Source of the DNA: an uncultured Clostridia bacterium | GTDB taxonomy: Bacteria; Bacillota; Clostridia; Christensenellales; UBA1242 | Assembly: GCA_934754475.1 (NCBI GenBank) | Contig: CAKVHV010000001.1 | Span: forward strand, 420,228-484,227 | Direction of reading: 5' to 3' | Length of the DNA stretch: 64,000 nucleotides | Shown: one piece after another, positions 31,783 through 36,370 of the stretch | Layout of the letters: each line of letters starts with the position of its first letter | Numbering within the stretch: the first letter of the stretch is position 1 | Program-made: the position numbers and the translations under genes | Notes under the pieces: model-generated | Database searches by the model: none | Seen by the model: the letters and a program-made list of their open reading frames with translations, nothing else | Told to the model about the DNA's origin: nothing

Positions 31783-31872
31783 AAAGTAAATTTTTCCATA
31801 TATAATTATATATAATATAATTAAGCCCGTCAAACAAAAATCGACAAAAACTTTTGAAAAACTATTAAATTT

Positions 31873-34600: not shown

Positions 34601-34697
34601 TTAGGTTACTCCTTTCATAAAAAATATAATCTTATATAATATTAAAGTTGTGCAAAACGAAAATTGCACACACTACTGATTGTATTATACGATTTTG

Positions 34698-34726
34698 ATT
34701 ATATACCAAATTTAGTCTTTGGTCAA
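34698..34726 (-). promoter_or_regulatory. Near-consensus sigma-A promoter of rny
   Basis: Minus strand reads TTGACC (34721-26), exactly 17 nt, TATAAT (34698-34703), about 95 nt upstream of the rny ATG. Confidence 0.7.
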
Positions 34727-34788
34727 ACTATTTTGAAATGTAATTTTCAAAATCTACAAGTATTTTGTCATAAACTTTTTTCAAGTAA

Positions 34789-34812
34789 CAAAAAAACCGC
34801 CAATTTAGGCGG
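34789..34812 (-). terminator. Rho-independent terminator closing the thiI / structured-element transcript
   Basis: Minus strand reads ccgcc-taaatt-ggcgg followed by T7-8. Confidence 0.7.
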
Positions 34813-34925
34813 AAATTTTGAAAATATCTATTATTAATTTATAAAATACATATATAAACAAACCAAATTATTAAAAATTTTGTCTGAAAGCGACGAAGTC
34901 ATTTTCAAGCAAAACTGATGTTTAT

Positions 34926-34982
34926 TCAATCTATGTGACCACGATTTTATCGTGGCATTTGCGGTAGCAAATTGGTTTGTGA
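34926..34982. repeat. 57-bp direct repeat, copy 1
   Basis: ttcaatctatgtGaccacgattttatcgtggcatttgcggtagcaaattggtttgtga; differs from copy 2 at one position. Confidence 0.85.
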
Positions 34983-35075
34983 GCAAGGTTAACACACAAT
35001 ATCACATGGATTATAATCTAGGAAGATTAAGCAAAGTAGTCCGCAAGGACACCTTGATTTAATCTGACGACGTTT

Positions 35076-35132
35076 TCAATCTATGTAACCACGATTTTAT
35101 CGTGGCATTTGCGGTAGCAAATTGGTTTGTGA
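35076..35132. repeat. 57-bp direct repeat, copy 2 (150-bp period)
   Basis: ttcaatctatgtAaccacgattttatcgtggcatttgcggtagcaaattggtttgtga. Confidence 0.85.
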
Positions 35133-35161
35133 ATGCAATGAACAAACCAACATTACATAGA

Positions 35162-36370
35162 TTAAATTTCAACAACTTCGATATTTTCCATTGCTTCACT
35201 AATAAGGGCTTCAATATCCAGTTTACTCTCTTCTTTCAAGCATTTTTCAAGTTTTGGTTTGATTACTGGATGCTTTGGCAAGAATACTGTACAACAATCT
35301 TCGTATGGAAGAATTGATGTCTCAAAAGTTCCAATTTTTTGAGCAACCCTAGAAATATCTTCTTTGTCAAACGAAATAAGTGGTCTAAAGATAGGAAGGT
35401 CATTAACGACTGCATTTGTAACAGTCATGCTTTCAACCGTCTGACTAGCGACTTGACCCAAGTTCTCACCAGTTATAATCGACTGATAATTATTTTGTTT
35501 AGCCAAACGTTCAGCAATTCTATACATAATTCTACGCATAAGAGTTATCATAAAGTCCCCGTCACAAAACTTGTGAATACTCTCTTGAATATGAGTAAAG
35601 GAAACGATATGTAGTTTGAAACCACCAGTGTATTTTTTCATGATTTTAGCAAGCTCAATAACCTTATCTTTTGCATTTTGACTAGTATAAGGATAACTAT
35701 GGAAATGCAAAGCATTAATAGTCATACCACGTCTAGCCATCATATAACCAGCTACTGGACTATCTATACCGCCCGACAAAAGCAACAATCCACTACCGCT
35801 AGTTCCAACCGGCATACCACCAGACATTTCGATAACATCAGTGTAAACAAGAGTGTATCCACTCTCTCTAATGTCAACATAAATAGTCACTTCGGGATTA
35901 TGCAAATCAACTTTTAAACTTGGATTGTTTTTGAGTACCAACCCGCCAAGAGATTTTGAGTAATCAATTGATGTCATTGGAAATCTTTTGTCAGCACGAT
36001 TTACAGTTACTCTAAATGTATTACACTTCAATTTGAGTGAAGCAACATAATCATCAATAGCCTTTAAATCAGTATCAAGCATAACAGCAACACTGATAGA
36101 ACATATACCAAAAACAGTCTTTAAGATTTCAATAATTTTCTTTTCTTTTTTCTCTTCAAAATTCTCAACCAAAAATCTTTTGTTTGTTCTTTTTACTTCA
36201 GCCAAACCTTCTAATTTTTCGGAGATATTACTAAGCAATTTCTTTTCAAAAAATCCAAAATTTTTTCCTTTCAAAAATATCTCACTATACCTAACAACTA
36301 TTACTTTTTTTAAGTCTTCCATACGTATATCCTTTTTTAATTTCATTCGTTTTACTAAATCATTTTTCAT
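35162..36370 (-). CDS. thiI: tRNA 4-thiouridine(8) synthase ThiI
   Basis: THUMP-type N-terminal half and PP-loop SGGIDSPVAGYMMARRG. The likely true start is the ATG at 36322 (MEDLKKVIVVRYSEIFLKGKN), which has AAGGA 8 nt upstream; the track start at 36370 is probably an extension. Confidence 0.9.
   Translation of the reverse strand: MKNDLVKRMKLKKDIRMEDLKKVIVVRYSEIFLKGKNFGFFEKKLLSNISEKLEGLAEVKRTNKRFLVENFEEKKEKKIIEILKTVFGICSISVAVMLDTDLKAIDDYVASLKLKCNTFRVTVNRADKRFPMTSIDYSKSLGGLVLKNNPSLKVDLHNPEVTIYVDIRESGYTLVYTDVIEMSGGMPVGTSGSGLLLLSGGIDSPVAGYMMARRGMTINALHFHSYPYTSQNAKDKVIELAKIMKKYTGGFKLHIVSFTHIQESIHKFCDGDFMITLMRRIMYRIAERLAKQNNYQSIITGENLGQVASQTVESMTVTNAVVNDLPIFRPLISFDKEDISRVAQKIGTFETSILPYEDCCTVFLPKHPVIKPKLEKCLKEESKLDIEALISEAMENIEVVEI

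Follow-up and report, generated by a model that had tools for sequence, protein, structure and literature searches.

The spacer between thiI and rny was analyzed in a 64,000-nucleotide (nt) stretch of DNA, called the window here, from an uncultured Clostridia bacterium (GenBank assembly GCA_934754475.1, contig CAKVHV010000001.1, positions 420,228 to 484,227). The spacer holds two structured repeat units placed head to tail, each with a linker hairpin followed by a cloverleaf core (Table 1). The window's own genome (G000) measures 1.36 Mb in 5 contigs with 32% GC, and all genomes compared with it were metagenome-assembled genomes (MAGs). An earlier note on this DNA had described a core repeated at a 150-bp period, and its structural description held on reanalysis. 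The repeated core covers 58 nt (34925-34982 and 35075-35132) with one mismatch, thus 98% identity. The 11-bp closing stem was recovered as aatctatgtaa at 35078-35088 pairing with ttacatagatt at 35153-35163, and its 3' arm contributes two bases to the thiI stop codon (35162-35164). ViennaRNA folding of the 150-nt unit at 35017-35166 gave a linker hairpin and a four-way junction, whose three hairpins were exactly those of the earlier note, at -50.3 kcal/mol (z = -6.8, 0 of 200 shuffles as stable). Unit 1 showed the same fold, and the minus strand of the 150-nt unit folded equally well. In copy 1, the closing stem carries a compensatory G-C pair in place of A-T and a T.G wobble on the plus strand (34932/35008). 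The minus-strand thiI terminator and the near-consensus rny promoter of the earlier note were both found. As the terminator lies downstream of the element, the thiI mRNA carries the reverse complement of both units as its 3' untranslated region (UTR).

Table 1. Features of the thiI-rny spacer in the window, and orthologous loci compared between G000 and its nearest relative G041 (^, insertion point; outer square brackets, inserted DNA)
Feature	Position	Strand	Sequence or content	Basis
rny promoter	34698..34726	-	TTGACC-17-TATAAT; host sequence, outside the element	
thiI intrinsic terminator	34787..34812	-	34797-34812 followed by a T run	
Linker type A	34870..34925	+	long imperfect hairpin GTTTTGTCTGAAAGCGAC-GAA-GTCATTTTCAAGCAAAAC	alignment with other type A linkers of G000; fold
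Core 1	34926..35012	+	cloverleaf (closing stem and three hairpins), variant third hairpin GAGCAAGGTTAACACACAA	fold
Promoter-like site	34989..35017	+	TTAACA-17-TATAAT, 11/12 matches; the joint's central region supplies the -10 hexamer	
Unit joint	35002..35026	+	TCACATGGATTATAATCTAGGAAGA; reads dif-like	
Linker type B	35013..35075	+	hairpin AGATTAAGCAAAGTAGTCC-GCAA-GGACACCTTGATTTAATCT, then conserved GACGACGTTTT	fold
Core 2	35076..35163	+	near-consensus cloverleaf	fold
thiI open reading frame	35162..36370	-	402 aa; the element's right end and the stop codon overlap	named in the earlier note
Locus h			G041 empty CATTTATATT^ATTTTACAA; G000 filled AATTATATT[ATCGGAAG...two units...CATAGATTATATT]ATCATTTTACAA	
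Locus n			G041 empty TACAATTAATTAT^TAAATTTG; G000 carries the element at ^	
Locus m			G041 empty TTGACA-N17-TATAATA^AATATTAG; G000 filled TATAATA[ATCTAGGAAG...	
Locus a			linker A (G000) or linker B (G041) before the same rare core	
Locus p			linker C in G000, linker A in G041	
Locus e			three units in G000, one in G041	

The copies were counted in G000 by BLAST and then with a covariance model. The core of about 90 nt was found by BLAST at 17 intergenic loci, often as tandems 146-154 bp apart, and the covariance model recognized 22 full-length cores, with several partial copies besides. At least eight congeners also carry the element (8 of the 25 sampled by BLAST), in copy numbers from 0 to 26 across the sample. 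The earlier suggestion of a structured RNA confined to this locus, either a small RNA (sRNA) from the thiI 3' UTR or an antisense RNA, is therefore not supported. The BLASTN search it had proposed did reveal dispersed copies, while the fixed-length target duplication expected of a MITE (a miniature transposable element with inverted repeats) was not seen. Each unit is composed of a linker of about 60 nt, belonging to one of four unrelated and interchangeable hairpin types (A-D), followed by the 88-nt cloverleaf core. The types are mixed in arrays, as A-B at thiI-rny and as C-B, D-A, A-C-B, A-B-D and B-D at other loci; B-type linkers alone recur at 6 other loci. Linkers of all types share their ends: the 5' end reads AT(C/T)TAGGAAG or ATTATC(G/A)GAAG, and the 3' end reads (C)TGA(C/T)G...TTT directly before TCAATCTATGT. 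The mobile unit starts with ATCTAGGAAG and stops with ACATAGATTATA, and the units carry no open reading frame (ORF). Beyond the genus, a covariance-model search of 200 genomes of the order gave a match in one sister genus; about 190 other genomes of the order gave no significant match except a marginal one (E = 3e-4) in another family, and the plasmid, phage and viral-contig collections searched gave no element match. The repeat family is thus dispersed, polymorphic between close species, modular, structurally constrained on one strand and bounded by dif-like joints.

Copies in the distant species G013 are up to 92% identical to the window unit, which points to transfer or to strong constraint. 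At a separate locus, q (G000 C5:65440-65740 and G041 C3:62630-62930), the element and its flanks are about 99% identical in the two genomes compared with 85-92% for other intergenic DNA, suggesting recent exchange between the two lineages. The loci of G000 are split 11 to 6 between the replichores, which is not significant and shows no clear bias; insertion polarity into single-stranded DNA of the lagging strand was rejected on this count.

Constraint on the fold was analyzed in 45 distinct cores from six species, scored on four helices (31 base pairs). Across these cores 92.8% of the alignment cells pair, compared with 32-42% in controls with slid partners. Double, compensatory changes occur in 14 of the 31 pairs, and none of 500 shuffles reached any of the five measures, so the comparative alignment that the earlier note had called for does reveal covariation. 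Three cores of G000 keep the cloverleaf with an unrelated third hairpin, AAAATTTTAA-CTTG-TTTAAAATTTT. The strand argument drawn from copy 1, a compensatory pair together with a G.U wobble on the plus strand, extends to the whole family. Among the non-Watson-Crick cells of the top strand, G.T was counted 58 times and A.C 16 times; in no helix does A.C outnumber G.T, and three helices show a G.T excess. The overall G.T excess indicates that the top-strand fold is the selected one. The bias also holds in copies lying antisense to their neighbors, including core 1 at thiI-rny. The test fits RNA and single-stranded DNA alike. A known RNA family and a tRNA- or tmRNA-like gene were considered and rejected, as ARAGORN predicted 0 genes and Rfam cmscan at E <= 10, the other check proposed earlier, gave no match on the element.

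Evidence of mobility was obtained by mapping element flanks between G000 and the whole assembly of G041, which has only about eight copies. Clean empty sites are present in G041 at loci h, m and n (Table 1). From the filled and empty pairs, the inserted unit is the linker plus the core, about 150 bp, and what looks like a duplication on the flanks is the joint's AT-rich center. A promoter -10 box is the exact target in at least one case, as the target sequence of locus m reads TTGACA-N17-TATAATAAATATTAG. The repeat beside the insertions measures between 4 and 11 nt and corresponds to that same center, so no target duplication of fixed length is present. Left flanks of arrays end in ATAA or ATAT and often resemble an XerD-like arm with the central region. 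The differing contents of the orthologous filled sites a, p and e show that modules turn over at resident sites.

The boundary between units was found to resemble dif, the target of Xer recombinases. In head-to-tail arrays the joint TTACATAGATTATAATCTAGGAAGT reads TTACATAG-ATTATA-ATCTAGGAAGT. For Bacillus subtilis, Kono et al. (2011, PMC3025954) give the dif site as ACTTCCTAGAATATATATTATGTAAACT. Read as its reverse complement, ACTTCCTAGAT-TATAAT-CTATGTAATAT, the joint is identical to this site, which is not the host's own dif, at 21 of 28 positions. These take in the TATGTAA of the XerD arm (RipX) and 10 of 11 positions of the XerC arm (CodV). The chance of at least 21 matches in a 150-nt unit is 2.4e-4 under the genome composition and 6e-4 under a 25% GC model. 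Only four sites in G000 fall within 7 mismatches of B. subtilis dif, and all are element joints or left ends of arrays. The joint holds a perfect 14-bp palindrome, TAGATTA/TAATCTA. Apart from the joint, the conserved linear motifs are TAGGAAGTT and CTGACGAC...TTTCA.T.TAT.GTAA. Each unit has one complete dif-like site, the other boundary having only an XerD-like arm preceded by GACGACGTTTTC. The joint of the window is composed of an XerD-arm-like ACATGG, the central ATTATA/TATAAT and an XerC-arm-like ATCTAGGAAG. It differs from the family joint consensus by 3 mismatches and holds the near-palindrome TGGATTATAATCTA, while the consensus joints elsewhere have the perfect 14-bp TAGATTATAATCTA. All 8 internal joints in G000 also read as rightward promoter-like sites, T[TG]AACA-17/18-TATAAT, with 10-11 of 12 matches, and a co-oriented gene lies directly downstream at 11 of the 17 loci. 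The site in the window likewise points rightwards, through linker B and core 2 and then antisense into thiI.

A pattern scan of the genus detected a second family in the congener G047, built on the same plan of a linker hairpin, GACGAC...TTTCA and a three-hairpin core, but with different hairpin sequences. The joint of this family, ACTTCCTATATTATACATTATGTAAT (ACTTCCTATAT-TATACA-TTATGTAAT), shares 23 of 26 positions with B. subtilis dif and is thus even closer to it. In loci L167-L176 of that genome about 20 dif-like joints and three core variants were seen, and several MAG contigs end inside the repeat. A 28-nt site, TTTTTCTACATA(A/T)TAAA(T/A)TATGTAATAG, is common to two element-poor congeners, G015 (L189, C3:557685) and G044 (L190, C1:262500). 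In G044 it contains a perfect palindrome, TACATAAT-AA-ATTATGTA, formed by two XerD-like arms, and the site is a candidate dif for a single recombinase. Within the window, an AT-rich near-palindrome, TTTTTCCATATATAATTATATATAATATAATTAAG, lies at 31790-31830 upstream of a gene for an 8,985-aa surface protein; its 24-nt core and about 19 nt of right flank are identical in G000 and G041 while the left flank differs, and the stretch may represent either a promoter or a site of recombination.

Three tyrosine recombinases are encoded in G000, two phage-type integrases and one Xer-like protein of 346 aa. The best NCBIfam score of the latter is to XerS, 190 bits, below the cut-off of 267, followed by XerC, XerD and XerA with about 150. 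Its gene is single-copy in all 19 good congener genomes and is the only tyrosine recombinase gene common to them; no second recombinase tracking the presence of the element was found among the 19. Between G000 and G013 the protein is 89% identical, against only 73% for ThiI. The gene (G000 C1:414401-415441) lies about 5 kb left of the window start and, followed by a lexA-like ORF, sits exactly at the maximum of cumulative GC skew in both G000 and G041 (C1:414 kb and C3:509 kb, respectively). No dif-like site adjoins it, and its upstream region has only promoter- or operator-like conserved blocks and no dif. One conserved motif, (G/T)TATTCGCAAAATAC, stands just upstream of its ribosome-binding site in most congeners and may be an operator. 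The one hit of the dif patterns near the skew peak falls inside an ORF that reads like miaA.

Other mobilization routes were also searched. Mobilization by IS200/IS605 insertion sequences (IS) or by a RAYT (transposase associated with repetitive extragenic palindromes, REP) was rejected, since no Y1 transposase (PF01797) was found in G000 and G013, the two genomes richest in the element. Similarly, retro-mobility was rejected, as no reverse transcriptase (PF00078) was found in the element-bearing genomes G000, G047, G041, G018 and G010. Self-comparison of G000 gave no other repeat of at least 250 bp except one 1.2-kb duplicate, and no multi-copy IS; this transposase screen was not exhaustive. 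The duplicate (C1:13973-15190 and C1:18847-20063, 96% identity) is the only long repeat besides the family.

The history of the insertion at thiI-rny was followed through the genus, where this neighborhood is kept throughout. The spacer is 561 nt in G000 and 150-250 nt in most congeners. In G043 it reaches about 990 nt (L043, C3:72200-74700) and holds a GC-rich insert of about 800 nt in surroundings of 32% GC, which could be a foreign element or an assembly chimera. A metagenome scan with the core pattern gave three contigs, one of which, ULTU01065463, is the thiI-rny orthologue with the same dimer at 91.5% identity. G041, whose ThiI is 95% identical, also has this dimer, so the insertion at thiI-rny is old. 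Identity to the orthologues is unevenly distributed. Linker B and core 2 reach 94-97% (95-97% and 94-95%, respectively), and core 2 is the top covariance-model match in G000 with 106.7 bits. Linker A (81-82%) and core 1 (83%) reach 81-83%, and the adjacent terminator spacer 70%. Core 1 scores 84.7 bits over model positions 1-87 and is an older, decaying copy. In linker A, the 5' recombinase-arm-like start has decayed to ATTAAAAATT in place of ATTATCAGAAGTT. G013 and other congeners have thiI-rny without the element. The exact empty site was not obtained, as G041 and the ULTU contig are filled and the next relatives, G011 and G013, are too diverged; a metagenome scan for strain variants of the thiI end gave none. 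At this locus the dimer would amount at most to a structured thiI 3' UTR with a possible antisense promoter. Beside it, the block 34601-34760 with the rny promoter is 89-94% identical across three lineages. There, a hairpin in the rny 5' leader, TGTGCAATTTTCGTTTTGCACA (34649-34670, minus strand), is nearly invariant in the three lineages and might have a regulatory role in the RNase Y mRNA.

Our preferred reading, held with moderate confidence, is that the thiI-rny units represent copies of a modular mobile element, about 150 bp long, gene-less and non-autonomous, which moves by site-specific recombination that is probably mediated by Xer. As the copies are scattered and have dif-like ends, the repeat is not an RNA gene dedicated to thiI-rny and probably spreads by means of a host recombinase. 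Integration, excision and module swapping would occur at the joint by a tyrosine recombinase, with the crossover inside the TATAAT-like central region. Such a crossover would direct the units to resident joints and to pseudo-sites rich in AT, promoter -10 boxes among them. The enzyme would most likely be the single housekeeping Xer-like recombinase of the genus. The conserved top-strand fold would be needed for propagation, as single-stranded DNA or RNA, and the structural constraint would be accounted for by a top-strand intermediate or transcript in folded form.

A number of points weigh against this reading. The insertions lie at 17 dispersed loci and not at the terminus, so the recombinase would need to accept poor pseudo-sites, and right flanks show little similarity to the XerC arm. 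A double-stranded circle of 150 bp is physically awkward, and folding of the top strand does not restore a full dif duplex. The reference was B. subtilis dif, and the genus has one Xer, not an XerC/XerD pair; the own dif of G000 was not found with the patterns of B. subtilis dif, the joint, palindromic XerD-arm pairs and the G015/G044 motif. The Xer-like gene is equally present in congeners without the repeat, and its presence therefore reflects opportunity, not proof. The G.T and A.C cells are not independent events, the linker swaps and array differences could stem from homologous recombination or gene conversion, and MAG assemblies can lose IS elements. A more far-reaching proposal is tentative and, in our view, rather doubtful. 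In it, the units would be the smallest known Xer-exploiting elements, 150-bp gene-less 'mini dif modules' integrated, excised and shuffled by a single Xer. On the folded hairpin-plus-cloverleaf strand the closing stem would rebuild a duplex recombinase arm, comparable to integron attC and CTX attP(+) sites, which are recognized as folded single strands, and homing to TATAAT would rewire host promoters, each unit supplying a replacement -35/-10 at its right end when it moves. Such modules may also explain the bcr1-type repeats of Bacillus.

The dif likeness of the joint would be incidental if the repeat were a classical MITE, cut and pasted or copied by a transposase acting in trans. The ends ATCTAGGAAG and CTTACATAGAT would then be imperfect terminal inverted repeats, matching each other at 7 of 10 positions, and the short AT-rich direct repeats beside the insertions (TTAT/ATTAT) a target duplication. 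Bcr1-type repeats with their TTTAT duplication are so described (PMC3184786), and MAGs may have dropped the IS copies that supplied the enzyme. The MITE-like label of the earlier note was closer than its RNA label, as the element is short, non-coding, dispersed and polymorphic, but the 11-bp inverted repeat on which it was based is the closing stem of the core and not an end of the mobile unit. We consider a classical MITE unlikely. G000 has no multi-copy IS, neither it nor G013 has a Y1 transposase, the flanking repeat of 4-11 nt is the central region of the joint, and tandem units share a single joint with no duplication between them. The dif match, with p of about 2-6e-4 per unit, also recurs in the second family of otherwise different sequence.

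The same fold could instead belong to a structured RNA with a cellular role, as a 5' leader, an mRNA stabilizer or a trans-acting sRNA, transcribed from the joint or from a captured host promoter, with DNA mobility being secondary. Compensatory changes with G.U favored on one strand, sigma-A promoter likeness at all 8 internal joints, co-oriented downstream genes at 11 of 17 loci, conservation of unit 2 at thiI-rny (94-97% against 70% in the neighboring spacer) and the transcription of bcr1 (PMC3184786) all fit it. We nevertheless rate it as improbable, because the unit has no Rfam or tRNA match and no terminator, orientation is mixed, and at 5-6 loci including thiI-rny host transcription would read the opposite strand while the wobbles stay on the top strand. 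Presence that differs between sister species also misfits an essential RNA. A domesticated element of chromosome architecture, whose joints serve as extra Xer/FtsK-related or nucleoid-protein sites, would even make the thiI-rny copy a candidate for the real dif. This dimer is conserved in three lineages and lies on the skew plateau by the terminus, about 40 kb from the skew peak, and no other dif-like site is present in G000. G013 and other congeners keep the Xer gene and lack the thiI-rny element, copies occupy both replichores without strong polarity (11 against 6), and the copy number ranges from 0 to 26 among congeners, all of which leaves very little room for an architectural role.

Several known systems resemble the family in part. 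MITEs and BIMEs (bacterial interspersed mosaic elements, made of REP sequences) are likewise small, non-autonomous intergenic repeats with hairpin potential, and BIMEs are mosaics of few module types (PMC3184786). The window family is as short, multi-copy, dispersed, polymorphic and non-coding as a MITE (22 full cores at 17 loci, with empty sites in G041). It differs from both groups in that no cognate transposase or RAYT was found, target duplications are not fixed in length and a branched fold is kept on one strand. REP and BIME repeats are palindromes of 20-40 bp with a RAYT, whereas the unit here is 150 bp and branched, and PF01797 is absent from G000 and G013.

The integrative mobile elements exploiting Xer (IMEX), such as the CTX, VGJ and TLC phages of Vibrio, also lack a recombinase of their own, carry a dif-like attachment site and form head-to-tail arrays by successive integration, and one IMEX class uses a folded single strand as substrate (PMC5357621, PMC4246890). 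The window family similarly has a dif-like site (21/28, and 23/26 in the second family, against B. subtilis dif) and no ORF. IMEX are gene-bearing phages or islands of kilobase size that insert at the dif of the chromosome, whereas the units described here are 150-bp, gene-less and placed at 17 dispersed loci on both replichores, at TATAAT/TTATATT-like pseudo-sites. Moreover, the host has one Xer instead of XerC and XerD, and the evidence for a dependence on it is circumstantial, a single Xer-like gene being universal in the genus. The pdif modules of Acinetobacter are discrete modules bounded by Xer sites, which shuffle and replace one another in place (PMC6449649, PMC13141974); comparably, inverted XerD-like arms lie on both sides of the core in the window family, and orthologous sites have exchanged linkers. 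The pdif modules contain genes, reside on plasmids and are bounded on either side by a full XerC-XerD site, the two being inversely oriented, while the units here are chromosomal and gene-less with one complete site each, which places them outside that class. Full-text literature searches gave no description of gene-less dif-bounded repeats, with incomplete coverage that does not prove novelty. If the Xer reading is true, Xer exploitation would not be confined to phages and plasmid gene modules but would include non-coding DNA of 150 bp, and its hosts would include Clostridia with a single Xer besides those with XerC/XerD. The elements would then be a source of promoter turnover in abundant uncultured gut bacteria. 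For annotation, such cloverleaves should be masked as repeats and not be listed as locus-specific RNA genes.

To our knowledge, no mechanism has emerged for bcr1 and similar small structured repeats in the 20 years since they became known. The bcr1 repeats of group A in Bacillus cereus are among the closest likenesses by description, being non-coding and intergenic, about 155 bp long and present in tens of strain-variable copies, with a compensated fold and an AT-rich TTTAT flank (PMC3184786). Compared by description only, the window family agrees with them in size, in its compensated fold and in positions that differ between close species, and its flanks are TTAT/ATTAT-like against the TTTAT duplication of bcr1. 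A dif-mimic reading of bcr1 was not found in the accessible literature. The two are set apart, again by description, by the host clade, here uncultured gut Clostridia with small genomes, and by architecture: bcr1 is a two-arm cruciform, while the window family combines four linkers with one core in a four-way junction and has a joint readable as a dif mimic. Such a joint makes the notion of 'site-specific recombination-like' movement concrete and testable for structured repeats.

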